64,000 nucleotides of DNA, taken from the NCBI GenBank assembly GCA_946623825.1, contig CAMORN010000002.1, positions 20,237 to 84,236 of the forward strand. The letters are read 5' to 3'. This DNA is from an uncultured Alphaproteobacteria bacterium. Lineage in GTDB: Bacteria > Pseudomonadota > Alphaproteobacteria > Rs-D84. Positions 9,939 through 33,958 of the stretch are shown here, piece after piece; position 1 is the stretch's first letter; every line of letters begins with the position of its first letter. The position numbers were made by a program, and so were the translations under genes. Below the pieces are notes generated by a model that worked only from the letters and a program-made list of their open reading frames with translations, did no database searches and had not been told where the DNA came from.

Positions 9939-12182
9939 ATGAATTTACTTATCGTTGAATCTCCATCAAAAGCAAAAACAATAGAAAAATACCTTGGTAA
10001 TACATGGCGTGTTGTTGCCTCTATTGGTCATGTTCGTGATTTGGTTCCTGAATCAGGTTCAGTCGATATTGAACATGGTTTTGCACCAAAATGGAAAATT
10101 ATGGAAGGTAAAGAAAAACAATTAAAACTTATCACCGACGAATTAAAGAAAGCAGACGCAATATACCTTGCATCCGATCCGGACCGCGAAGGGGAAGCTA
10201 TCGCATGGCACATCAACGATATTTTAACATCTCGCAAGGTATTAGATGGAAAACCTGTTTATCGTGTTGCGTTTCATGAAATTACTAAAAACGCCATTAT
10301 AGAAGCATTAAAACACCCACGTGAAATTGATAATAATCTTGTTGATGCTTACCTTGTTCGCAGAATACTTGATTATTTAATTGGATTTGGAATTTCACCA
10401 TTATTATGGCGCAGAAATCTTGGTAAATCTGCGGGACGCGTTCAATCTGTGGCTGTTAAATTGGTTGTTGATCGTGAAAAAGAAATTGAAGTTTTCAAAC
10501 CTGTTGAATATTGGTCTGTAAATGCAAATTGTGGCAAAGATAAAACCAATTTCAAAGCATCACTTATAAAATATAACGGTAAAAAAATAGAAAAAATGAC
10601 CATAGAAAACAAAACTATGGTTGATGAAATTGTAAATTCTATTAATACACCAACAAAAGGCGTTGTTTCCAACATTGAAAAAAAGAAAGTGCAACGTCAT
10701 GCAGCGGCACCATTTACAACATCTACACTGCAACAAGAAGCAGCCAGAAAATTATATTTTTCATCTAAAAGAACAATGGCTACGGCACAAAAATTATATG
10801 AACACGGTTTTATTACTTATATGAGAACCGATGCGACAAATTTATCAAATGAAGCGGTTGCAGAAATTCGCGAATATATTAATAAAGAATATGGTGAAAA
10901 ATTCTTGCCTAAAACACCAAATGTTTATATCACTAAATCTAAAAATGCTCAGGAAGCACACGAAGCTATCCGTCCAACACATTTCTTGAATCAAAATGTA
11001 AATTTATCTGGCGATGAATTAAAATTATATAATTTAATATGGAAAAGAACCGTTGCTTGTCAAATGTGTAATGCTGAATTTGATTCTGTATCTGTTGATA
11101 TAGATGTAAATAATGCTATTTTCCATTGTGTTGGTACAACACGCACATTCGATGGTTTTATGAAGGTTTATATTGAAGATATTGATGATGAAAAAGAAAG
11201 TGATGAAGTAAAATTACCAGCTTTAAATATCAATGATGAAATTGAAATTAAATCTTTGGAATCTGAACAACATTTCACACAACCACCTGCAAGATTTACA
11301 GAAGCATCACTTGTTAAAAAATTGGAAGAATTAGGTATTGGTCGTCCATCAACATACGCAACAATTATGTCTACAATTGTGGACAGAAAATATGTTGAAC
11401 AAGATAAACAACATCGTTTTCATCCAACGATTTCTGGTTGGGTTCTGGTATCTTATCTTGCAAAATATTTCAGCGAATTAGTTGATGTAAATTTCACCGC
11501 TAAAACAGAAGACACATTAGACGATGTTTCAAATGGAACAAAAGATAAATTATCATCATTGCAATCATTTTGGACACCAACAAACAAAATGATAAATGAT
11601 GCAAAAGAAATTAAAACATCTGATATCATAGATTCTATAAACGAATTTATGCATGAACATTTATTCAAAGATGGTTCTGATGTATGTCCAAAATGTGGTG
11701 GAAAATTGGGATTAAAATTATCTAAATACGGTGCATTTGTTGGTTGTGTAAATTATCCAACATGTGATTATACATTAAAATTATCAAATGATATTCCGGA
11801 AAATATTCCTGAAAAAGAAACAAATAATTCTGAAAAAGATTTGGGTGATAATATAATTTTCCGTATTGGTAAATATGGTCCATATATCACAGATGGTGCA
11901 AAAAATGTTCCTGCTAAAAATTATACAGCTGAAACAATAACACTTGAAATAGCAAAAGAATTATTGGATAAAAAAAGTAAAAAAATAGAACCTGTTATTC
12001 TTGGTAAAAACCCAGATACAGATAAACCAATTTATTATTATCCAGATGGCAGATATGGTCCATATTTATCATCAAATCGTGTAAATGTTTCTGTGAAAGA
12101 ACAACCGTCATTAGAAGAAGCAATAAATTTAATAAATAATAAAAAACCGAATACATCTAAATTTGTAAAAAAGGCTAAATAA
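9939..12182 (+). CDS. topA: DNA topoisomerase I
   Basis: MNLLIVESPSKAKTIEKYLG Toprim N-terminus, catalytic core, C-terminal Cys4 zinc-ribbon repeats (CPKCGG...CVNYPTCDY). Confidence 0.95.
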   Translation: MNLLIVESPSKAKTIEKYLGNTWRVVASIGHVRDLVPESGSVDIEHGFAPKWKIMEGKEKQLKLITDELKKADAIYLASDPDREGEAIAWHINDILTSRKVLDGKPVYRVAFHEITKNAIIEALKHPREIDNNLVDAYLVRRILDYLIGFGISPLLWRRNLGKSAGRVQSVAVKLVVDREKEIEVFKPVEYWSVNANCGKDKTNFKASLIKYNGKKIEKMTIENKTMVDEIVNSINTPTKGVVSNIEKKKVQRHAAAPFTTSTLQQEAARKLYFSSKRTMATAQKLYEHGFITYMRTDATNLSNEAVAEIREYINKEYGEKFLPKTPNVYITKSKNAQEAHEAIRPTHFLNQNVNLSGDELKLYNLIWKRTVACQMCNAEFDSVSVDIDVNNAIFHCVGTTRTFDGFMKVYIEDIDDEKESDEVKLPALNINDEIEIKSLESEQHFTQPPARFTEASLVKKLEELGIGRPSTYATIMSTIVDRKYVEQDKQHRFHPTISGWVLVSYLAKYFSELVDVNFTAKTEDTLDDVSNGTKDKLSSLQSFWTPTNKMINDAKEIKTSDIIDSINEFMHEHLFKDGSDVCPKCGGKLGLKLSKYGAFVGCVNYPTCDYTLKLSNDIPENIPEKETNNSEKDLGDNIIFRIGKYGPYITDGAKNVPAKNYTAETITLEIAKELLDKKSKKIEPVILGKNPDTDKPIYYYPDGRYGPYLSSNRVNVSVKEQPSLEEAINLINNKKPNTSKFVKKAK

Positions 12183-13802
12183 TTGGCTAAATATGATAAT
12201 TCTTTTACAGATGAATTAAGACAAAGATTATCTTTGGTTGATGTTATTTCGCGTCGTGTACCTTTGACCAAGAAAGGACAAAATTATTGGGGTTGTTGTC
12301 CATTTCATAATGAAAAAACACCATCTTTTTCAGTAAGTGAAGAAAAAGGTTTTTATCATTGTTTTGGTTGTGGTGAACATGGTGATATTATTTCATTCAC
12401 TATGAAATCTGAAAATGTAGATTTTAAAACAGCTATTACAGAACTTGCAGAAATGGCTGGATTAAAATTACCGGAAATAAAACAAAAATCACAACAACAA
12501 ATTGAACAAGAAAAAACATATATAGATATTACTGAACAGGCTGCTAAAATTTATCAAGATTTATTATATTCTGAATCTGGTCGTGAAGCGTTAGAATATA
12601 TAAAAAAGCGCGGTTTCAGTGATGAAATGATAAAAAAATATAGATTGGGTTATGCGCCAAAAAATAATATTATTTCATCTAAATTTTCAAATATAAAAAT
12701 TGATAAATTAACTGCAACTGGATTGGTTCGAATTGGTGAATATGGCCCTTATGATTTCTTTCGTCATAAATTAATGTTTCCTATATTTAATGCACACGGT
12801 CAAATTGTTGCTTTTTCTGGCAGGTCCTTAGACGGCAGTGAACCAAAATATATAAATACTTCTGATACAGAATTATTTCATAAAAGACAAACTATATTTG
12901 GTTTTAATTTTGCACGCGATTTTATACATCGCCAAAACAGAAGCATTATTGTAGAAGGCCAAATAGACGCAATTCAAATGCAGGTTCATGGTTTTCCAGA
13001 AACTGTTGCACCACTTGGTACCGCTTTAACAGAAGATCATATTGCAATTTTATGTAAATCAAACAGAAATATAACATTTTGTTTTGATGGTGATAATGCT
13101 GGACAAAAGGCTGCTATGCGGGCGTGTCTGCTGGTTTTACCATTTTTGCGTGATAATTCAGATGTAAAATTTGCTTTTGTTTCTGGGGGTAAAGATCCAG
13201 ATGAAATCTTGAAAAATCATGGTACATCTGCAATGCAAAAAATTATAGATGACGCGGTTCCTTTGATAGATTTCTTGTGGCAAAGTGTTAATAAAAACTA
13301 TTTAACACAAACACCAAGTGGCAGAACACAAGCCGAAAAATTCTTGAAAGAATCTATTTCTAAAATAAAAGATAAAATTTTTCAAAACGAAATAGAACAG
13401 GAATATAATCAAAGAAAATTTAATCAATGGCATAAATGGTCTCGTAAAACAAATACTATAAATATAGAAGTTCCAAATATAGTTGATATGTCAACCAAGA
13501 TATTAAAATCTATTGTTCAAACATATCCTGAATTATCTGAAAAATATATAGAATTTTTATCTTCATTAAATATATCTTTTGATGAAGATGTTGAAAAAAC
13601 AGATTTATCATTAACAGATGCTGAAAATTATATTAAAAAATTATCTTTGAAAAAGATGCTCGAAAAATTAAATAATGAAAGAATTAAATTCTTGTCAGAT
13701 ATAAAAAATGAATCTGAAAATGAAGAAAATAAAAATAAATTAAAAATGATTAATGATAAAATTCAGGAAATAACAAACAAATTAAAATTGTTTAATGAAT
13801 AA
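12183..13802 (+). CDS. dnaG: DNA primase
   Basis: Zinc-binding CPFHNEKTPSFSV...HCFGCGEHGD and a Toprim domain. TTG start abuts the topA stop. Confidence 0.9.
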   Translation: MAKYDNSFTDELRQRLSLVDVISRRVPLTKKGQNYWGCCPFHNEKTPSFSVSEEKGFYHCFGCGEHGDIISFTMKSENVDFKTAITELAEMAGLKLPEIKQKSQQQIEQEKTYIDITEQAAKIYQDLLYSESGREALEYIKKRGFSDEMIKKYRLGYAPKNNIISSKFSNIKIDKLTATGLVRIGEYGPYDFFRHKLMFPIFNAHGQIVAFSGRSLDGSEPKYINTSDTELFHKRQTIFGFNFARDFIHRQNRSIIVEGQIDAIQMQVHGFPETVAPLGTALTEDHIAILCKSNRNITFCFDGDNAGQKAAMRACLLVLPFLRDNSDVKFAFVSGGKDPDEILKNHGTSAMQKIIDDAVPLIDFLWQSVNKNYLTQTPSGRTQAEKFLKESISKIKDKIFQNEIEQEYNQRKFNQWHKWSRKTNTINIEVPNIVDMSTKILKSIVQTYPELSEKYIEFLSSLNISFDEDVEKTDLSLTDAENYIKKLSLKKMLEKLNNERIKFLSDIKNESENEENKNKLKMINDKIQEITNKLKLFNE

Positions 13803-16554: not shown

Positions 16555-18969
16555 ATGGAATATTTATTTAATTATTTTGCAGGAAATTCAAATTCAATGA
16601 CATTGACATTGGTTATTATTGCGATGTCTGTGTTGTTGGTATTTATTGTTTTGTTGGCTTATATACCGACTTTAACAAAAAGAATTTTACCTGAATTTGG
16701 TTATGCTAGATATTCTGATTATTTACCATTCAAGGGTGTTTATAAAGATGATATTATATCTTTAAATGATGGTTCTTTGGCACGCGCATATAAAATAAAT
16801 GGTGTTCAAACCAGTATAATGGACGATGAAAACCGTGAAAAATTATTAGATTTACGTGCACAATTATTCAATCAAATTCAAGATCCGTCTGTTCATATTC
16901 GTTTTTATACAATTCGTGATAAAGTTGATGAAAAAACAAATTATGAATTTCATCAAAAAACACTGCAAAAAATTTATGATAAATGGAATAACCAAGGATT
17001 ACAGATATTTAATAATTCTTATTATGTTGTTATATCTGTAAATGGTGCGAATAATTATGATAAATTATTGCATTATTCTAATTTTATAGAATCTGTATTA
17101 TCTGTATATAAACCAGTATTATTAAAACACAACAGTTTTGATAACATAGCAACATTATTTGGTCGTATATTATCACCAATAACAAAACCTGTTATTAAAA
17201 AATGTGATAATGATATTTCAGAACTTGTTGCTGTTGATAATGTTTATTTTGGTAAAAATGGAATCATAGAATATTCAAGTGGTGATAAATCTTATTTTGC
17301 ATCTTTGATTTCATTTAAATCAGCACCTGATTTTATGGATGAAGAATTTTTTAATTCTGTATCAACAATACAATGTGAAATGATTTGTATGAACGCATTT
17401 CATGTTTTAAAAGCAAGTGATATTGATTCTATTATAAGACAACATAAATCAACAATCACAGACGGCAGCGAAGATTCCACCATTGAACAAATAGAACAGG
17501 CACAATCTTCTATGGATGAAAATATAACTGGTGCACAAACATTGGTTGATTATTATCCATTATTTATATTATTTGGTTATAATAAAGATGAACTTGAAAA
17601 AAATGTTTCAGAATTCAAGAAAATAGCTGCATCTTTTGGTGTTGCGCCAGTTGTTGAAAATTTTGCAACCAAGGCTTCTTTCTTTTCTCAGATACCTGGT
17701 TTTGATATATTCCCACGCAGTTTCAAGATGTTGTCAAAAACCGCTGCGGTCAGTATACCTTTGTCATCAATGCCACATGGGGTCGCAAACAGTGACTGGG
17801 GTAATGGTCCGTTAGTTATATTCCCAACTGCTCAGGGAACACCATATCAATTTCAATTTCATGTTTCAGATAAACCGGCTGCTGTGGGACATACATTAAC
17901 AATTGGTCCAACTGGTGGTGGTAAAACAACATTGTTCTCGTTTCTTATTGCTCAATCTTTGAGACACCAAAAGTTAAAAGCTTTCTTCTTTGACAGAAAC
18001 AAGGGTGCAGAAATATTTACATTGGCTGTTGATGGTAAATATATAACCATGAATGGTAAAGAAAAAGATGCAAAACAAGATGTATTTTTAACACATTTAA
18101 ATCCATTAAAAATGCCGGATACTGCGGCAAATCGCGCATTTTTAAGACGTTGGTTTGCAATGATTACTGGTCAAAGTGATGTTGTTTCAAGTGATGAAAT
18201 TGCGCGTGCTGTATCTGTGAATTTTGATTATTTGAAAGACGAAGACAGATTATTGAAAAATCTGTATGAAAGTTGTTTTTCAAGTGAAGGTACAATGCGT
18301 GGTGAATTAAAGAAATGGGTTGATCCATTACAATATGGTGATATTTTCAATGAAACCGAAGATACACTTGATTTAAACGCCCGTTTAACAACATTTGATT
18401 TTACAGATATTTTGCAAGATGAAGTTTTAGCACCAGCAGTTATATCTTATATCTTACACAGAATAAATAATACAACTGTATCTGGTGGAAATCCTTCTTT
18501 GATTATGATTGACGAAACCGCACCTATGCTTGAAAACAAAATGTTCCGTGATAATTTCATAGCGGGCCTGCAAGAAGGTCGTAAAAATCGTCAAGCATAC
18601 ATGGTTGCGTTCCAACGCGCGAATGTTCTTGATAAACTTGGTATTGGTGATGTTGTTCGTGGTCAGGCACAAACTGTGTTATTTTTCCGTAATCCTGCGG
18701 CTGATTTAAGTGATTATGAAAAATGGAATTTAAATCCACTTGAAATGGCTTTTATTCAGGGTAAAGCATATCCAAATTTAAAACGCGCAGTATTATTATC
18801 ACGTCCAGTAAACGGGGAATCTGTAATTTTAAATACCGAATTGGGTGGTTTGGGTAATATGTTGCGTTTGTTTGAATCGGGTCGTTCTTCTGTTTTATTG
18901 GCTGAAGAATTATACAGAAATTATGGAAATAATTTTGTTGAAGAATATCTGAAAAAACAAACAATGTAA
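16555..18969 (+). CDS. virB4: Type IV secretion system ATPase VirB4
   Basis: 804 aa with N-terminal TM region, Walker A GPTGGGKTT, and a CagE/TrbE/VirB4 family C-terminal ATPase domain. Confidence 0.9.
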   Translation: MEYLFNYFAGNSNSMTLTLVIIAMSVLLVFIVLLAYIPTLTKRILPEFGYARYSDYLPFKGVYKDDIISLNDGSLARAYKINGVQTSIMDDENREKLLDLRAQLFNQIQDPSVHIRFYTIRDKVDEKTNYEFHQKTLQKIYDKWNNQGLQIFNNSYYVVISVNGANNYDKLLHYSNFIESVLSVYKPVLLKHNSFDNIATLFGRILSPITKPVIKKCDNDISELVAVDNVYFGKNGIIEYSSGDKSYFASLISFKSAPDFMDEEFFNSVSTIQCEMICMNAFHVLKASDIDSIIRQHKSTITDGSEDSTIEQIEQAQSSMDENITGAQTLVDYYPLFILFGYNKDELEKNVSEFKKIAASFGVAPVVENFATKASFFSQIPGFDIFPRSFKMLSKTAAVSIPLSSMPHGVANSDWGNGPLVIFPTAQGTPYQFQFHVSDKPAAVGHTLTIGPTGGGKTTLFSFLIAQSLRHQKLKAFFFDRNKGAEIFTLAVDGKYITMNGKEKDAKQDVFLTHLNPLKMPDTAANRAFLRRWFAMITGQSDVVSSDEIARAVSVNFDYLKDEDRLLKNLYESCFSSEGTMRGELKKWVDPLQYGDIFNETEDTLDLNARLTTFDFTDILQDEVLAPAVISYILHRINNTTVSGGNPSLIMIDETAPMLENKMFRDNFIAGLQEGRKNRQAYMVAFQRANVLDKLGIGDVVRGQAQTVLFFRNPAADLSDYEKWNLNPLEMAFIQGKAYPNLKRAVLLSRPVNGESVILNTELGGLGNMLRLFESGRSSVLLAEELYRNYGNNFVEEYLKKQTM

Positions 18970-27110: not shown

Positions 27111-27172
27111 AATACAATTTTGCCTTTATTTTATTTTATCTTTTGTGTTATAATACTTACACAGAAGAGAGA

Positions 27173-28423
27173 ATGATTAAGCAAATTATAACAGTTCATC
27201 ATAAAAAATTTGCGACAGGTCTATTTTGGCAACCTGTCAGTGTTGGTAATACAGCCTTTAATTATGCGAGACAACTGGCAAAAAATACAAAATATACACT
27301 GTTCACAGAATATAAATCTATGGTTGGTTTAACCAATGCAAGAAACGGTGCACATTTTTCGATGCCAAGTGCAGCTGCAGAAATTGTTGAACATTTTGCA
27401 GATTTAATTTCTTTCTTGGGTGTATTTCAGGCGGATAATGGTTTTTATTTGGTTGCGGTGCGTAATGGAATTATTATTCGTGATATTTTGATAGAATCTG
27501 AAACAAATGCCCGTGAAATTTATACTGAATTGTCAAATATACCTGATTGGGGTGCTTTGTTTGCGCCTGCGTCTTGGGGAATGCCTCGTTCTCAGGAAAA
27601 ATTTTTATCAGACATTATTCAAAATAACAATGTTGCGAGATTACGCAATATCAGTATCGTAAAATCTTTATTACCATCTATCTTTTTCATTGCGATTTTC
27701 GTGGTGGCATTCGTTTCGTTTTTATATTCACCAATGGGTAAAAGTATTATGCCACGCAAACGGGTAAATATAGATCCTGAATTAGCAGCAGAATACAAAC
27801 GCCAAATTGAATTAAAAAACAAAGAATTAGATGAACAATTCAATATTGTTAAGAAAGAAGTTGAACCATTAAATCGTCCATACGAACATTTACCAGATGT
27901 CATGGAACGCGCAAATTTGTGCTACAAGGCGATTGCTTTTGTTATGCAACCAGTTTCTGGTTGGAATCAGACATATACAAAATGTGATGAAAAATATGTA
28001 ACTGCTACATTTAAACGCGATTTTGGAACATTAAATGATTTTTATGATATTGGTTCTGAATTATTCCCAGGCGCGGTTGTTCAACAATTGTCTGAAAACG
28101 AAATATTGGTTCGTGTTATGTTGCCTGAATTAAAAACAGTTTCTTCTTTAGATGAACGCGATCAGGTCAGTGCTATGCGCGACATTACAACCAATTTCCA
28201 ACAAATAAACACTAAATTGCACATAAATGGTGTTTCGGATACTGTATCAAATGGGGAAGAAACCGAAAAATTAAATGTTATAGAGGTTTCTGCATCATCA
28301 AAAATGATACCGACTGAATTTATGAATGTGTTTAATGATTTTGGTGGTGTTTATATGACATCTGTAAATTGGAACGCAAACACAAGAACATGGAATTACG
28401 AAGTAATTGTTTATACAAAATAA
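27173..28423 (+). CDS. Bitopic inner-membrane protein; candidate type IVb pilus accessory protein (R64 PilO / BfpC / GspL-like)
   Basis: About 190-aa cytoplasmic N-domain, a single TM (LLPSIFFIAIFVVAFVSFLY), and an approximately 200-aa periplasmic C-domain. Size (416 aa) and position (immediately before a PilP-like protein, the ATPase and the platform) match R64 pilO-pilP-pilQ-pilR. A -10 TATAAT lies at 27149-54 and the RBS GAAGAGAGA precedes ATG 27173. Confidence 0.35.
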   Translation: MIKQIITVHHKKFATGLFWQPVSVGNTAFNYARQLAKNTKYTLFTEYKSMVGLTNARNGAHFSMPSAAAEIVEHFADLISFLGVFQADNGFYLVAVRNGIIIRDILIESETNAREIYTELSNIPDWGALFAPASWGMPRSQEKFLSDIIQNNNVARLRNISIVKSLLPSIFFIAIFVVAFVSFLYSPMGKSIMPRKRVNIDPELAAEYKRQIELKNKELDEQFNIVKKEVEPLNRPYEHLPDVMERANLCYKAIAFVMQPVSGWNQTYTKCDEKYVTATFKRDFGTLNDFYDIGSELFPGAVVQQLSENEILVRVMLPELKTVSSLDERDQVSAMRDITTNFQQINTKLHINGVSDTVSNGEETEKLNVIEVSASSKMIPTEFMNVFNDFGGVYMTSVNWNANTRTWNYEVIVYTK

Positions 28424-28439
28424 AAAAAGGAAAAATAAG

Positions 28440-29087
28440 ATGATTAATAAAATTCAGAAAATATTGTTATCAGTGTTGATTATATTTGGTTTTTCTGTCC
28501 CATCTTTTTCAGAAGAATTTATCGAAGAAGAAATTATCACAGAAGAAAATGCAGACCAAATATCTGCTGATGCGTTAAATAATTATGAAGTGAACGGTTC
28601 TTTGTTTGAAAGAATAACAACATTGGAACAAGAAAAAGTTGTTATGCAACTTGAAAAAGAAAGGGCACAGCTTGATTTAGAATTGGAAAGATTAAATGCT
28701 GAAAAAATAAAAATTCAAATGGAATTGGATACTTTGTCTGGGCGTGCAGAACAACAACAGCAAGAATTGGAAGCAACCAAGGCACAATTGGAAGCGCAAA
28801 CTGAAAAATTAAAACGTCAACTGGAAGAAGTAGAAGAAGAAAAACCTGTTGAAAGACCAACAAAAAAAGTTGTAGAAGGTGGTTTATCAAATCAATATAA
28901 ATTGGTTAATGTTATTGGTATTGGTAATCAATTACAGGCAACACTTGAAGAAGTTGCGACTGGTCAAAATAAACGCGTAAGTGTTGGTAAACAAATTGGT
29001 GGTTATATTGTAAAAAGCATTTCTTTAAATGACGGTATTATTTTTGAAAAAGACGGTCAGGAAGAAAACATAAATATTGGAAAATAA
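28440..29087 (+). CDS. PilP/GspC-like periplasmic protein (N-terminal anchor, coiled coil, C-terminal beta domain)
   Basis: N-terminal hydrophobic helix, acidic stretch, and a long coiled coil (LEKERAQLDLELERLNAEKIKIQMELD...). The C-terminal approximately 70 aa (YKLVNVIGIGNQLQATLEEVATGQNKRVSVGKQIGGYIVKSISLNDGIIFEKDG) resembles PilP/GspC homology-region domains. Confidence 0.35.
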   Translation: MINKIQKILLSVLIIFGFSVPSFSEEFIEEEIITEENADQISADALNNYEVNGSLFERITTLEQEKVVMQLEKERAQLDLELERLNAEKIKIQMELDTLSGRAEQQQQELEATKAQLEAQTEKLKRQLEEVEEEKPVERPTKKVVEGGLSNQYKLVNVIGIGNQLQATLEEVATGQNKRVSVGKQIGGYIVKSISLNDGIIFEKDGQEENINIGK

Positions 29088-29088
29088 T

Positions 29089-30717
29089 ATGCCAAACAAA
29101 GATGATAAATTTTTAACAGATGTTTCATCAAAACCGTCAATTCCGGCGGGACTTGAAAACGCAAACAGTAAAGATATTATTGATTATTTGTTTTCTAATC
29201 AAAACAGATTATTAACATCTTCCGTGGGTGAATTGGCTTTGCCGAAAGACACACAAAGTTTGATTGCATATTTTTCAAGTGGCGAAATTATTATTTCCAG
29301 AACACACAGATACGATGGTCGTGTTATTGCGTTTATAGATTTATTGCGTCAGAAAAATAAATTGATGAAACAACCTTTTTATTCTGATTTAGGTTTAATA
29401 TCAAACATTTATAAATATAACGACGAAAGGGTTGGCGGAATACATGCGCGTCCTGACTATGATAACCAGATGCAGAAAGATTTTGTTGATATTATTGCAC
29501 GTGCTGCATCGCAAAAGGTTTCTGATATTCACATAGAGGTCGCAGACCAAACAACAATTTATTTCCGTATAGATGGCAGTATGCAACCGGTTCTTGAATA
29601 CAATTCACAATGGGGTGAATCTTTCGTTCGTGCGGCGTTTGCATCGGCTGATATTTCTAATTCGAGTTATGCACAAAACGAATATCAAACCGCCCAGAAA
29701 GATGGACGAACACCATTGCGTGGAACAAAAGATTTATATTTGCCAAATGGTGTGTTGGGTATTCGTATGCAATTTAATCCGATTGCGTTTGGTTCGCAAT
29801 ATGTGGTTATGCGTTTGTTATATGATAACCCAAGCGAAGGTATAAAAACCGAACAAGAATTTAATGAATATGAACAAAAATTATTGATGCGTTTGCGTTC
29901 TGCACCAACTGGATTGGTTGTTGTTGCGGGTCCTACATCTTCTGGTAAATCTACGACATTGGTTCGCAATATGGCGTTGATGTTGAAAGAAAAAAGATAT
30001 GAAATAAATCTTATTACTGTGGAAGATCCTGCGGAACAAAAGATTTTTGGCGCACATCAAATGCCGGTTGTTAACACAACGAACGAAGAACAACGCGAAG
30101 AAAAATTTACAGAAGCCCTTGCGGCTGCTTTGCGAAGCGACCCTGATACATTAATGGTCGGTGAAATCAGAACATTATCTGCGGCGCAATTGACGGTCAA
30201 GGGCGCATTGTCTGGTCATAATGTGTGGACAACATTGCACGCTAATTCTGCGATGGGCGCGTTGACCCGTTTGTTGGATATGGGCGTGGAAGCTTTCAAA
30301 TTAAAAGATGAAACAATGATGCGTGGTTTGGTTTCTATGCGTTTATTTAAAAAATTGTGTCCACATTGTCGTGAAAGATTACTGGATAAAAGAAATCATC
30401 CGTCATATAACCGTGTTCGTGAAACATTGGGTGATTTAGGGTTGGCGCAAACATATGTTCGTGGTGTTGGTTGCGAATATTGTAATGGCACCGGAACAAT
30501 TGGTCGTGTCAAGGCGGGTGAAATTATTATCACAAACAGTGAATTTTTATCGCTTGCGCTGGCGGGGGAAACAGAAAGCGCAGTGAAATATTGGCTTGAA
30601 AAAATGAACGGACGAACACTGAAAGAATCTGCAATTGAATTGATGTTGCGTGGTATTATCGGTGTTGATGAATTGGAAGACAGGGTTGGTTTATTAGACA
30701 GACCATGGGTATATTAA
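29089..30717 (+). CDS. GspE/PilB/TcpT-family secretion ATPase
   Basis: Walker A VVAGPTSSGKSTTL, Asp box/Walker B, His box (MVGEIRTLSAAQL...GHNVWTTLHANSA), and a C-terminal tetracysteine motif CPHC...CEYCNGTG as in GspE/PilB. ATG 29089 directly follows the upstream stop. Confidence 0.85.
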   Translation: MPNKDDKFLTDVSSKPSIPAGLENANSKDIIDYLFSNQNRLLTSSVGELALPKDTQSLIAYFSSGEIIISRTHRYDGRVIAFIDLLRQKNKLMKQPFYSDLGLISNIYKYNDERVGGIHARPDYDNQMQKDFVDIIARAASQKVSDIHIEVADQTTIYFRIDGSMQPVLEYNSQWGESFVRAAFASADISNSSYAQNEYQTAQKDGRTPLRGTKDLYLPNGVLGIRMQFNPIAFGSQYVVMRLLYDNPSEGIKTEQEFNEYEQKLLMRLRSAPTGLVVVAGPTSSGKSTTLVRNMALMLKEKRYEINLITVEDPAEQKIFGAHQMPVVNTTNEEQREEKFTEALAAALRSDPDTLMVGEIRTLSAAQLTVKGALSGHNVWTTLHANSAMGALTRLLDMGVEAFKLKDETMMRGLVSMRLFKKLCPHCRERLLDKRNHPSYNRVRETLGDLGLAQTYVRGVGCEYCNGTGTIGRVKAGEIIITNSEFLSLALAGETESAVKYWLEKMNGRTLKESAIELMLRGIIGVDELEDRVGLLDRPWVY

Positions 30718-30720
30718 GAT

Positions 30721-31791
30721 ATGAATAAATTAGATTTGCTGTATGCAAAACTGGTTTTTAGAACAAATACTGATAAACGTATGGCGATTTCAAGAAAAAT
30801 CGCATCTCTGCTTCGTAATAATTTTACATTGATGGACGCGTTGCACCGTATTGAAATGATAGAATCATTTGACGGACGAAAACCAAATGAACCATTTGCA
30901 ATCGCAATGCGTGAAATTCAACAGAACCTTGAAAAAGGTATGACTTTCAGCGAGGCCACACGTGGTTGGGTTCCAAATGAAGAAACATTGCTTTTAATGT
31001 CTGGTAATGTGTCCAGTTTATTGGTTTCGCTTGAAAATGTATCGCGTGTTGTTGGTGGTATCAGAAGAATTAAACGCGCAATGTGGTCTGCGTTGGCATA
31101 TCCATTATTTTTGTTTTTATTGACGATTGGTATAATTATTATGGTTGGAATATATCTTGTTCCACCATTGGCACAAGCGGCGGGCAGCGATATTATATGG
31201 CGTGGCACGGCGGCGTCCCTGATATGGGTATCAGATTTTGCAAATAAATATTGGTATGTTTTTGCAGCCGGATTGGTTGGGGTGATATCTGTTGTATGGT
31301 TATCTTTGCCAATATGGACGGGAAAATTAAGAACCATGTTTGATAAATTACCACCATGGAATATTTATAAATTACAAACATCTGTTGGTTGGTTAATGTC
31401 ATTGGCTGCAATGGTGTCTGCGGGTGTGTCTGTGCCGGACGCGTTGCGTTTATTGATGGATTCATCAAACAGATATTTATCAAATATATTGGAAGAAACC
31501 CTGCATTATATTGCAAACGGTGAAAATTTGGGTTCTGCGCTGGCGTTGACTGGGAAAGATTTCCCAAATGGTGAAATCGTTGGCGATTTGATGATATATT
31601 CAGATATGAATGATTTCGCACAAAATCTGGACGATATCGCAAATGATTATATGGAAGAATCAGTTCGCCGTATGGAATCTATATCAAGTGTTTTAAACAG
31701 CATTGGTATTATATTAGTATCAATTATTATTGGGTGGATAGTTTTGGGCACTTTCCAGATGCAGGAACAAATCACCGCCGTTTTGATGTAA
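30721..31791 (+). CDS. GspF/PilC/TcpE-family inner-membrane platform protein
   Basis: 356-aa polytopic protein directly after the ATPase, with T2SS-F-like helical cytoplasmic segments alternating with TM helices. Size matches the type IVb platform proteins TcpE, BfpE and R64 PilR (about 340-365 aa). Confidence 0.55.
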   Translation: MNKLDLLYAKLVFRTNTDKRMAISRKIASLLRNNFTLMDALHRIEMIESFDGRKPNEPFAIAMREIQQNLEKGMTFSEATRGWVPNEETLLLMSGNVSSLLVSLENVSRVVGGIRRIKRAMWSALAYPLFLFLLTIGIIIMVGIYLVPPLAQAAGSDIIWRGTAASLIWVSDFANKYWYVFAAGLVGVISVVWLSLPIWTGKLRTMFDKLPPWNIYKLQTSVGWLMSLAAMVSAGVSVPDALRLLMDSSNRYLSNILEETLHYIANGENLGSALALTGKDFPNGEIVGDLMIYSDMNDFAQNLDDIANDYMEESVRRMESISSVLNSIGIILVSIIIGWIVLGTFQMQEQITAVLM

Positions 31792-32044
31792 ATAAAATTT
31801 ACTTGTAAAAATTTTTCTAAAATTGCTATGATAAAAATGTCGATAAAATTTTTTATCGGTGGGGTGTAGTAACCCGTTTAAAACAGCGTCGTAAAGCAGA
31901 CGAAAAATGCCTCCAACTTGAATAATGGTTGGAGGGTCGTGATATACATAAATAAACGGCACAATTTCTGTTTTAATTGTTACTAACCTCCAACCACCAA
32001 ATGTTTATGGTGGTTTTCTTGTTAAAAAAAGAAAGGGAGTAACC

Positions 32045-33268
32045 ATGTCACAAAAAATCTTTTTAACATCCGCGCTTGCGATGGGCGTGATAGCACCGGC
32101 ATTTGCGGAACCATCACATACGGGAACATTCCCAGCCGACGGCTATATGGAAGAAGATTACACATATACCAACGCGGCAACTGCAGACAACATGGACAGC
32201 GTATATGAAGGAACCGTAGATGCAGTCGCGGAATACGAAGATGTATTATATCAAATCGTCGCGGGACAATATTTACCGGCGGGCGCAGAATCACCAATAG
32301 ATTGTGATCAATCTGGTTATTTCTGTGCTGGTGTGCAAAATGGTGTTTATTATGACGCAAATAATAATCAGGGACTTACATCATGTTCGGATGCGACAAA
32401 CGGCGCATATACATTATCCGCCGGAACTGGTGACAGCGTAAATTCATGTTATCGTACATGTACAAATTCGGATGTTGCACATTCAACGGGAACAATGAAC
32501 GGTGGCTATTATTATGGTAATAACAACCAATGTGGCGCAACATCTTGCGTTAACGGATGGCATTTGAAAACCAGCATGAGCGGCGGCGAATTAGTAACCG
32601 CAATTGGTACAGGCGCCGGTGAAAACAGTGCTCATATTAAGGCAGACGGTACATTTGGTGAACAAAACTTTGATGGTCAGGGAGAAAAGGGGCAATCATA
32701 TTATGGCTTAACCGACAATAACACATGGGCGGTAGATTACGGCACCAACGGAATGTTGGTTGGTCAGGCTCGTTGTTCTACACAAGCAGGTGATAATAAT
32801 GGTGCTACATGGACAAACCCAACAATAACATCAAGTTTAACAGATGAAACCGGTCAAGCGGGGGCACAATATTGTTATTGTAATGTGACGGGATATAAAG
32901 GTACGGACGGCACCATGCAGAGCTTGTCCGCCCCTTGGGTGTTCTACGAAGGCTTCAGCGGTGGCGAGTCGGCTTGCGCATACGGCTGCGCTAACGACTG
33001 TGCGAGCATCTTGCGTATCACGGACTCGTCCTTCCTCGCGTTCCGTGCTGCGTTGTTGGGATCCGTTCAATCAAGTCCAGCGATGTGTGAGGCAAATGTT
33101 ATCAACATTAATTGGTCGAATGCAGATGCAGCTGATGTTATTGCAAACAATGCGGGTACCGCCACATACGGAAGTGATGTTCGTACCCCTGTTAAGGCAC
33201 AGACCATTAAGGGTAAAACATTCCGTGGTTGGCGTTTCAGCAAACCAGAACAAACCAATTTGCCATAA
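32045..33268 (+). CDS. Secreted Cys/Gly/Thr/Asn-rich protein of unknown function, compositionally foreign
   Basis: Sec signal peptide MSQKIFLTSALAMGVIAPAFA-EP; 407 aa with more than 20 Cys and almost no Lys/Ile, unlike the rest of the proteome. Its DNA is 45-60% GC against a 30-33% background, with GC-rich third codon positions. RBS AAGGGAG. It lies just downstream of the secretion ATPase and platform genes. Confidence 0.5.
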   Translation: MSQKIFLTSALAMGVIAPAFAEPSHTGTFPADGYMEEDYTYTNAATADNMDSVYEGTVDAVAEYEDVLYQIVAGQYLPAGAESPIDCDQSGYFCAGVQNGVYYDANNNQGLTSCSDATNGAYTLSAGTGDSVNSCYRTCTNSDVAHSTGTMNGGYYYGNNNQCGATSCVNGWHLKTSMSGGELVTAIGTGAGENSAHIKADGTFGEQNFDGQGEKGQSYYGLTDNNTWAVDYGTNGMLVGQARCSTQAGDNNGATWTNPTITSSLTDETGQAGAQYCYCNVTGYKGTDGTMQSLSAPWVFYEGFSGGESACAYGCANDCASILRITDSSFLAFRAALLGSVQSSPAMCEANVININWSNADAADVIANNAGTATYGSDVRTPVKAQTIKGKTFRGWRFSKPEQTNLP

Positions 33269-33388: not shown

Positions 33389-33958
33389 TTAAGCCATAAA
33401 TGGCAGGTTTTCAAGCGTTCCTTCTGTAACCCTTACATTTACGTCTATCAGCATGAAAACTGAATCTGGGGACGTTTTTGTGTTTTCTGGGAATATATCT
33501 GTTGATAATAAATGGCTGGTGTTGACGGTCAATTTTGTAACCAAATGGTCGTCGTCTAACAGAGTATAAATTGGTCCAACATCATGAGGGGTATTTTGAC
33601 CGATTTCATGTTCGTTTTGTGGACAACGCAACCCGTCCAATATTGTTTTGACACGGTTATCTATGTCTGAACGTGGAACACCAACAATTTCAGGGTGCAT
33701 CAACAAAATATCTAATTCTGCAATCATTTTCAGGTTTGATGTAATGATTGGGTTAAAATCTATACCGCCGATATGACGGGTTATAATCGGGCTTTTTGTA
33801 GCGTCAGGCATCATAAATTTAGACAAATTGTTCCATGGTTGGAAATTCAGCAATTTCTTTAATTGTGGGTGAAATTGCATGCGGATATCCGCAATATGTT
33901 GGGCGCGTTTTTTCGGATTTGTTAAAATATCGCCATAGTAAAGTAATTTAAATTTCAT
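33389..33958 (-). CDS. RusA-like Holliday-junction resolvase superfamily protein with N-terminal extension
   Basis: PRSDIDNRVKTILDGL matches the RusA catalytic block RRRDLDNLQKAAFDAL (DxDNxxKxxxDaL). The downstream LLDDDHLVTKLTV matches the RusA WLDDAQVVDYRVV block. 189 aa. Confidence 0.45.
   Translation of the reverse strand: MKFKLLYYGDILTNPKKRAQHIADIRMQFHPQLKKLLNFQPWNNLSKFMMPDATKSPIITRHIGGIDFNPIITSNLKMIAELDILLMHPEIVGVPRSDIDNRVKTILDGLRCPQNEHEIGQNTPHDVGPIYTLLDDDHLVTKLTVNTSHLLSTDIFPENTKTSPDSVFMLIDVNVRVTEGTLENLPFMA

Follow-up and report, generated by a model that had tools for sequence, protein, structure and literature searches.

We identified a structured leader RNA upstream of a secreted-protein gene in a 64,000-nucleotide stretch of contig CAMORN010000002.1 (the whole stretch analyzed, hereafter the window) from an uncultured alphaproteobacterium of the Rs-D84 lineage. 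The leader (positions 31792-32044 of the window) is very probably a cis-acting element for conditional transcription termination, i.e., a riboswitch-like attenuator, and belongs to a widespread new RNA family of Rs-D84/Candidatus Enterousia-like bacteria and prophages. Two properties of riboswitches were found: a conserved structured domain supported by covariation was present in the 5' untranslated region (UTR), and, as judged from few variants, the alternative pairing of the expression platform overlapped this sensor domain. At least 124 distinct copies, often several per contig, were detected in rumen, gut and termite metagenomes, in Candidatus Enterousia-like metagenome-assembled genomes (MAGs) and in a prophage. 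We regard the leader as a real and previously uncatalogued orphan class of riboswitch-like attenuators.

The initial annotation of this DNA had described a 250-nt leader with mutually exclusive hairpins. The hairpin arms were indeed present: CCTCCAAC (31910-17), separated by a 10-nt loop from GTTGGAGG (31928-35), a second CCTCCAAC copy at 31987-94, and terminator-like arms AACCACCA (31992-99) and TGGTGGTT (32008-15) followed by TTTTCTTGTT and then by the predicted ribosome-binding site (RBS; GGGAG, 32035-39) and the ATG at 32045. A repeat search of the window recovered the same arms, together with a 15-nt, 87% complement between 31926-40 and 31982-96. Three occurrences of CCTCCAAC or its complement were counted in the 64-kb window, clustered in a segment of 85 nt (0.63 occurrences expected; 3 reached in 2 of 100 shuffles). 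The RNA folding proposed in that annotation gave -71.1 kcal/mol for 31792-32060 (269 nt, RNAfold), compared to -47.7 +/- 4.8 kcal/mol for dinucleotide shuffles (z = -4.9). The structured leader was therefore real, but its transcribed part was shorter than stated, only about 205 nt (31839-32044, with a predicted transcription start near 31839).

None of the 4227 covariance models of Rfam 15 matched the leader. At gathering thresholds, the whole window yielded only three tRNAs; at 31700-32150, with E values up to 10, the best match was rteR (23 bits vs a gathering score of 72) and every match was implausible; and 12 other loci, each with at least one family copy, yielded only tRNAs. A match to an unrelated known element, which the initial annotation had named as an outcome that would refute it, was thus not found in Rfam. 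Literature searches by sequence, organism and gene association, together with the first 200 of 408 supplementary files of a human-microbiome structured-RNA screen, revealed no earlier description, which does not prove absence; a large-scale screen may still list the family without a name.

Anatomy of the leader RNA

The structure was derived from an alignment (A2) of 105 copies with less than 88% pairwise identity. RNAalifold, a hand-specified structure and realignment to the covariance model were all concordant. In this structure 94.4% of cells were paired, compared to 31-51% with slid partners, and 25 pairs varied on both sides; the covariation score was 0.350 vs 0.04-0.08 for slid partners, and none of 500 shuffles reached this value. 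The paired elements were thus kept and covaried across the family. The elements are listed below in window coordinates, with pair numbers referring to columns of A2.

31803-31832, + strand: promoter (promoter scan), with -35 TTGTAA at 31803-08, an 18-nt spacer and an extended -10 TG-n-TATGAT at 31824-32
31839-31860, + strand: P0, 5'-terminal hairpin CGAUAAAA / UUUUAUCG (RNAfold), which covaries (GC/CG/AU/UA at several positions)
31861-64 : 31873-75, + strand: Pa, GGG(G) (GGG at 31862-64) with CCC; pair 54:67 = GC62/AU21/GU19
31865 : 31961, + strand: long-range Watson-Crick pair U31865 : A31961; pair 57:233 = UA66/CG30
31867-72 : 31980-85, + strand: P1, UAGUAA with UUACUA; six pairs, all covarying, e.g., AU45/CG42/GC13/UA3
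31878-86 : 31968-76, + strand: P1b, UUAAAACAG with CUGUUUUAA; assessed by a matched-vs-mismatched partner test
31887-90 : 31899-902, + strand: P2 hairpin, CGUC / GACG; pair 85:129 = CG63/UA18/UG9
31903-09, + strand: A-rich joiner after P2
31910-35, + strand: P3, candidate anti-antiterminator hairpin, with d CCUCCAAC at 31910-17, loop at 31918-26 and e GGUUGGAGG at 31927-35 (paired arms d:e, 31910-17 : 31928-35)
31936-40 : 31956-60, + strand: P4 hairpin, GUCGU / ACGGC; pairs 184:232 = GC97/AU6/CG2 and 185:231 = UA38/CG30
31962-65 : 31976-79, + strand: P5, CAAU with AUUG; pair 235:254 = AU60/UA44
31987-95, + strand: segment a' CCUCCAACC, the perfect 9-nt complement of e, whose last 4 nt (AACC) open the 5' arm of the terminator
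31992-99 / 32008-15, + strand: intrinsic terminator (terminator scan), AACCACCA / UGGUGGUU, with the U-rich tract UUUUCUUGUU to 32023
32015-32044, + strand: linker to the gene, with Shine-Dalgarno (SD) GGGAG at 32035-39; a separate promoter would not fit
32045-33268, + strand: regulated gene, whose 407-aa product carries a signal peptide (AFA-EP) and matches no Pfam family

The most striking helix for covariation was P1. Its 5' strand sits in the loop of Pa, so that Pa and P1 make an H-type pseudoknot; no nucleotide belongs to both helices, and the loop lengths (L1 2 nt, L2 0) are those of a classical pseudoknot of this type. P5 and P1b are related likewise. Pa and the long-range pair 57:233 covaried independently of one another. 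P1b was hypervariable yet always complementary, with 97 distinct sequences among the 105 members: the longest complementary run averaged 7.5 bp for true partners (at least 7 bp in 82%) and 4.3 +/- 1.3 bp for mismatched partners (at least 7 bp in 5.7%). The alignment showed that P2 is missing from a short subtype located upstream of XRE genes. P4 directly abuts P3 with no linker and carries a loop, apical or internal, with the conserved sequence GA(A)UA...(R)AAUAA, in which the AAUAA positions were invariant or nearly so. A mutual-information ranking yielded only the helices listed above, and the corresponding scan revealed no tertiary pair beyond 57:233 (64:270 in the numbering of alignment A4).

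From these comparisons we read Pa, P1, P1b, P5 and the one long-range pair as a probable compact pseudoknotted core. The "riboswitch-like" description in the initial annotation fits, as the switch sits in a covarying pseudoknotted domain of approximately 165 nt. That annotation did not include the long-range helices P1 and P1b, nor GGGG at 31861-64, a possible further partner of its region 3 (the second CCTCCAAC copy) in the minimum free energy (MFE) fold. An extended P1 pairing, GGGG:CCUCC, appeared in the MFE fold and was rejected since it had no covariation support, whereas the Pa pairing GGGG:CCC had such support.

Signals for initiation and termination were also conserved. A positional profile revealed TANNNT in 104 of 105 members, and the motif T.A..AAT was located 6-11 nt upstream of P0, the first helix; the -10 element of the family is thus a TAnAAT box, often preceded by TG. 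The terminator stem covaried (pair 272:301 = AU46/GC43/GU15) and was followed by at least 6 T in 8 positions in 89 of 102 members, as in intrinsic terminators. In the window, the U tract (UUUCUUGUU) is also complementary to an A tract (AAAAAGAAA, 32026-34) located just 5' of the SD, forming an inverted repeat. This U-tract/A-tract hairpin recurs in the family, e.g., at loci L031, L043, L056 and L077, and may shape translation of read-through transcripts.

Proposed strand exchange among d, e and a'

The switch appears to involve three short strands. Strand e is complementary to d over 7-8 bp and, perfectly, to a' over 9 bp, and a' overlaps the 5' arm of the terminator by AACC. In the proposed mechanism, transcription would start at approximately 31839 from the leader's own promoter, and P0 and then the Pa/P1 pseudoknot core would fold. 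P1b and P5 would close a junction bearing P2, P3 and P4, with U31865:A31961 tying the parts together. The switching strand would be e. If it pairs with d (CUCCAAC, 31911-17), P3 would form as an anti-antiterminator and a' would be left free; AACC could then join the terminator stem (31992-99 / 32008-15), made of a' and the downstream arm, and polymerase would stop in the U tract just before the RBS. If e pairs with a', in a perfect 9-bp antiterminator that is longer than d:e, half of the 5' arm of the terminator would be sequestered, allowing read-through into the gene. With a' located 2 nt after P1 and e abutting P4, the core would bring these two strands side by side. If this model holds, changing a', e.g., from CCUCCAACC to CCAGGAACC, would affect termination.

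The canonical copies cannot be used to test these pairings because the search pattern by which they were sampled fixed the d, e and a' blocks. However, the covariance model found copies outside the pattern, including three non-canonical ones in which d, e and a' had changed together:

L021: d CCCGAC; e GGUCGGGGAG; a' CUCCCCGACC
L047b: d CUCCUGA; e GUCAGGAGGG; a' CCUCCUGACC
L136b: d CUCCUGGC; e GUCAGGAGGG; a' CCUCCUGACC

Strand d tolerated a wobble or bulge (L136b, L179, L021), while a' remained a perfect complement of e in every haplotype. L047b and L136b each shared a contig with a canonical copy, and this coexistence of canonical and variant haplotypes (L047, L136) argues for pairing in cis rather than for one sequence-specific trans factor. 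At the sequence level, the coordinated variation supports the three-strand switch model. The central proposal of the initial annotation, that its region 2 pairs with either region 1 or region 3 and that 2:3 pairing breaks the 3:4 terminator, is therefore backed by both the covarying terminator and the coordinated variants.

Nearest-neighbor energies for 102 members, from fold models that ignore pseudoknots, favored the P3/terminator fold over a fold with forced e:a' pairing by 12.3 +/- 4.2 kcal/mol. The margin was 7.6 +/- 4.2 kcal/mol before the terminator 3' arm exists, and P3 was present in the MFE fold of all 102 members. We infer that termination would be the default state and that an input on the folded core would tip the competition between d and a'. 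The core would then sense an effector, most likely a small molecule or signaling nucleotide and less likely a protein; direct ligand sensing is favored because the fold is complex and contains invariant unpaired nucleotides. We lean slightly towards an effector that promotes read-through rather than termination, given that the thermodynamically preferred state is termination and that a':e is the better helix in every case.

Several observations weigh against a conditional terminator of this kind. Support for e:a' came from three variant copies (two haplotypes) and one wobble variant in a pattern-selected sample, and the formal count for e:a' pairs included only two double-sided changes, with one haplotype misaligned by an insertion. 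In nested folds the antiterminator was much less stable than the terminator fold, so that an extra input must be postulated. Pa and P5 could mark an alternative conformer and not coexist with P1 and P1b, because both are ordinary hairpins in the nested fold that is forced to hold the antiterminator. A few members had no convincing U tract (e.g., L179 and the L059 and L061 type), and some open reading frames (ORFs) were located more than 100 nt away. In addition, the gene associations name no metabolite, and both termination and read-through are predictions from sequence.

Family members and downstream genes

A pattern made from the three conserved blocks gave three matches in viral contigs and more than 120 among the metagenome matches listed. 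The covariance model (R1) scored the window copy at 149.6 bits and found exactly one copy in the window; BLAST and nhmmer likewise detected no second copy or paralog there. A scan of viral contigs with a P4-loop pattern added one variant, L179 (8438-8617, IMG/VR), and the other 18 new loci did not match the model. In L179, d was CUCUAAC (with a G.U wobble to e) and a' was perfect, but no convincing terminator stem or U run was present; this may be a translation-level variant or a decaying copy. Housekeeping genes shared by the family contigs were 65-95% identical to Enterousia references, and syntenic loci belonged to rumen and gut MAGs assigned to Candidatus Enterousia and to uncultured Alphaproteobacteria (GTDB). 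As far as could be tested, the family appears confined to the Enterousia lineage and its relatives, including those of termite gut.

Downstream genes were arranged in a regular way. Among copies with enough flanking sequence, 98 of 102 had a same-strand ORF with an SD within 300 nt, with a median start 51 nt after a'. Of the members with an ORF, 66% had the start codon 35-65 nt after a', and 83% had it within 100 nt. The RBS usually followed the terminator by 20-30 nt, and the median start was approximately 20-30 nt past it, which leaves no room for a separate promoter. Pfam searches of 92 downstream proteins identified Flg_new (Listeria-Bacteroides repeats, 27 proteins), XRE-type helix-turn-helix (approximately 11-17), Ephrin_rec_like (4) and EcoRI methylase (2) domains, and the remainder had no Pfam match. 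Cysteine-rich secreted proteins and one UvrD helicase were among the downstream proteins. A signal peptide was apparent in 69 of 107 downstream proteins. The set is coherent as surface and accessory genes and points to no metabolite.

A specific tie of the leader to the secreted-protein family was not supported: XRE regulators, a methylase and prophage cargo genes follow other members, and the closest paralogs of the 407-aa protein lack the leader. This protein is a member of a large paralogous family in uncultured gut Alphaproteobacteria. The idea that the leader travels with the family of this protein was rejected: its closest homologs, P0001 and P0002, are preceded by approximately 100 nt of plain sequence, and the paralogs P0017, P0028 and P0029 have a different leader with a (CA)n tract and no R1 match. 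Upstream of P0017 and P0029 (L163:9800-10000 and L165:9800-10000), an SD is followed by a short GTG ORF running through (CA)n, with approximately 13 repeats in L163 and 4 in L165, and both leaders end in a strong hairpin and U tract immediately before the RBS. Judged from these features, the same protein family seems to be attenuated here by a leader peptide that is phase-variable through slipped-strand mispairing.

We also compared the position next to the T2SSF gene across species. The element was present at this position in 5 of 35 species, inverted in one: forward copies followed the syntenic T2SSF gene in L005, L011 and L031, and a diverged inverted copy was found in L021. The L031 element preceded a different gene, coding for a 72-aa XRE-like protein. 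The leaders of the window (31792-32044) and L005 (5073-5329) were 98% identical, with five differing positions and an A-tract indel, all in loops or linkers. The flanking T2SSF proteins were 97% identical, and the downstream secreted proteins only approximately 61%. The sequences suggest that, behind a conserved leader, the gene cassette was replaced or came under strong diversifying selection; selection on the leader is indicated by its 98% identity, with changes confined to loops and linkers, next to a protein with approximately 61% identity.

Two further arrangements were observed. In L081 (2303-2678, minus strand), two complete tandem units, each with its own terminator, precede a single 72-aa XRE-type gene. 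L041 (1-14363; IMG/VR UViG_3300024269_000278) is a genuine myovirus-like prophage region with tail sheath, tape measure and tail proteins identified by PHROGs. Its leader copy (12016-12197) precedes a gene for a 316-aa signal-peptide protein beside a DNA methyltransferase gene; therefore, phages of these bacteria use the leader for cargo genes.

Candidate effectors, related leaders and genomic setting

A new riboswitch class, whose core binds a small signaling molecule (e.g., a nucleotide second messenger or a host/partner compound) and coordinates surface-protein, XRE and prophage cargo genes, is a plausible proposal that we hold tentatively, somewhat short of even chances. Among known systems, SAM-I/S-box and M-box Mg2+ riboswitches are alike in having a 5'-UTR position after a promoter, a covarying multi-helix sensor with pseudoknot-type contacts, a sensor strand (here e) that also takes part in an antiterminator competing against an intrinsic terminator before the RBS, and tandem units. 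They differ in that our family has no Rfam 15 match and precedes surface, XRE and prophage genes rather than genes of a metabolic or transport pathway; moreover, its competing d and a' segments are near-identical direct repeats, giving a simple three-strand exchange. The GEMM riboswitches (cyclic di-GMP-I and -II) occur in many copies per genome, and the genes they accompany are not biosynthetic but those of pili, adhesin-like or secreted proteins and phages. They are the nearest to our family by gene association, but neither covariance model matched and the architecture is different.

The same switch could respond to a dedicated RNA-binding protein or to another macromolecule (e.g., a tRNA, a small RNA or a 30S subunit on the SD-like GGAGG of e), by analogy with PyrR, TRAP, LicT and T-box systems. 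We consider this possible but rather unlikely. The downstream genes resemble a regulon (surface proteins, XRE regulators and prophage cargo) and not a metabolic pathway, several copies occur per genome, a protein could bind the near-invariant AAUAA that is unpaired in the P4 loop, and e, d and a' resemble SD and anti-SD sequences. T-box, LicT/RAT, PyrR and TRAP leaders also share with our family a stable default terminator, an antiterminator that uses nucleotides of the terminator 5' arm, and several units forming a regulon; in T-box and LicT systems it is the factor that stabilizes the antiterminator against such a strong default. On the other hand, the fold, with two pseudoknot-type interactions, a long-range pair and a multi-helix junction, is far more elaborate than known protein-binding attenuator sites, and the sensor is a large pseudoknotted fold with no RAT-like simple hairpin. 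No candidate protein gene was consistently adjacent, and no conserved start codon followed the SD-like e. T-box membership is contradicted by the lack of a Stem I specifier, T-box sequence, aminoacyl-tRNA synthetase or amino-acid genes and Rfam T-box match. In addition, genomes of the order Rs-D84 lineage are smaller than 1 Mb, lack most biosynthesis and contain few regulators (PMC12306168).

It is improbable that the element is an independent small RNA gene acting in trans via its anti-SD-like CCUCC motifs, with the downstream gene incidental or reached by leaky read-through. Its own promoter and strong terminator would give a transcript of approximately 180 nt, and the element is multi-copy. 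Its CCUCC motifs recall anti-SD small RNA families of Alphaproteobacteria, and in other bacteria some riboswitches have trans activity once their transcripts are terminated. However, orientation and spacing were fixed, with a same-strand ORF after 96% of copies and most starts 20-30 nt after the terminator; the CCUCC motifs were located in stems rather than loops; and no small RNA of Rfam matched. The coordinated d/e/a' changes, with differing haplotypes in one genome, point to pairing in cis, and units in tandem share one downstream gene. After termination, the short transcript could nonetheless have a role in trans.

Ribosome-mediated attenuation by a leader peptide is very unlikely. The four-segment geometry (1:2, 2:3, 3:4) is that of trp-type attenuators, and the window has two small ORFs, namely the 13-codon MIKMSIKFFIGGV ORF noted in the initial annotation and AUG CCU CCA ACU UGA, which encodes Pro-Pro and overlaps d (region 1). 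However, our family has no conserved translated leader ORF. The first ORF is not conserved, and its ATG (31828) is part of the -10 box and thus precedes the likely transcription start. The AUG before d was present only in the window and L005, and other members read AUAUCUCC or ACACCUCC. Across the family, ATG occurred in at least 15% of members only at columns 5, 55 and 199, in no case with an upstream SD or conserved frame. The absence of a conserved leader ORF indicates that the choice of hairpin is not set by a stalled ribosome. The second ORF itself (31907-31921, Met-Pro-Pro-Thr-stop) has no SD and is probably fortuitous.

It is hardly credible that the region has no regulatory role, being a pilus-operon terminator plus chance repeats or a selfish element resembling miniature inverted-repeat transposable elements or repetitive extragenic palindromes: the leader directly follows the T2SSF stop, it is multi-copy, and the hairpin 31910-35 with its A-run is readable as a minus-strand terminator, but the element follows T2SSF at only 5 of 35 syntenic loci (inverted at one), a promoter lies upstream, and orientation to the next ORF is constant. 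Moreover, recent selfish copies would be expected to look alike, whereas the 105 copies have diverged strongly and show compensatory changes in each of the variable helices.

The genes downstream of the family, which code for surface or secreted proteins (apparently cell-surface or host-interaction proteins), small XRE regulators and mobile-element cargo, suggest that a global signal controls the surface and accessory genes of these genome-reduced symbionts. If the small-molecule proposal is true, one RNA would govern a global regulon of the genome-reduced (<1 Mb) Rs-D84/Enterousia gut symbionts that has also been adopted by phages. Identifying the input of the leader would reveal what these regulator-poor symbionts sense. 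It has become rare to find an orphan riboswitch-like class with more than 100 diverse members and strong covariation, and each has historically led to a new ligand or regulatory principle. Exchange of three strands between near-identical repeats is a simple and directly testable mechanism, and covariance model R1 allows annotation of the regulon in MAGs.

Upstream of the leader, the window contains type IVb-pilus-like genes, coding for a PilO-like protein (27143-28423), a T2SSE ATPase (29077-30717) and a T2SSF platform protein (30721-31791), and the leader begins directly after the T2SSF stop at 31791. A VirB4/TrbE-like type IV secretion ATPase (16555-18969) is located further upstream of this R64-type IVb pilus-like set (27143-31791). 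Unlike R64-type clusters, the set has no prepilin gene 3' of the platform gene T2SSF, and the leader and secreted-protein gene fill that slot. The secreted-protein gene is monocistronic, and a terminator at 33348-75 ends the unit. Beyond it, an unannotated 189-aa minus-strand ORF (33389-33958) with no Pfam match is convergent with the secreted-protein gene, followed by gyrB. One side of the hairpin at 33348-75 is A-rich and the other T-rich, and it could work as a bidirectional terminator.

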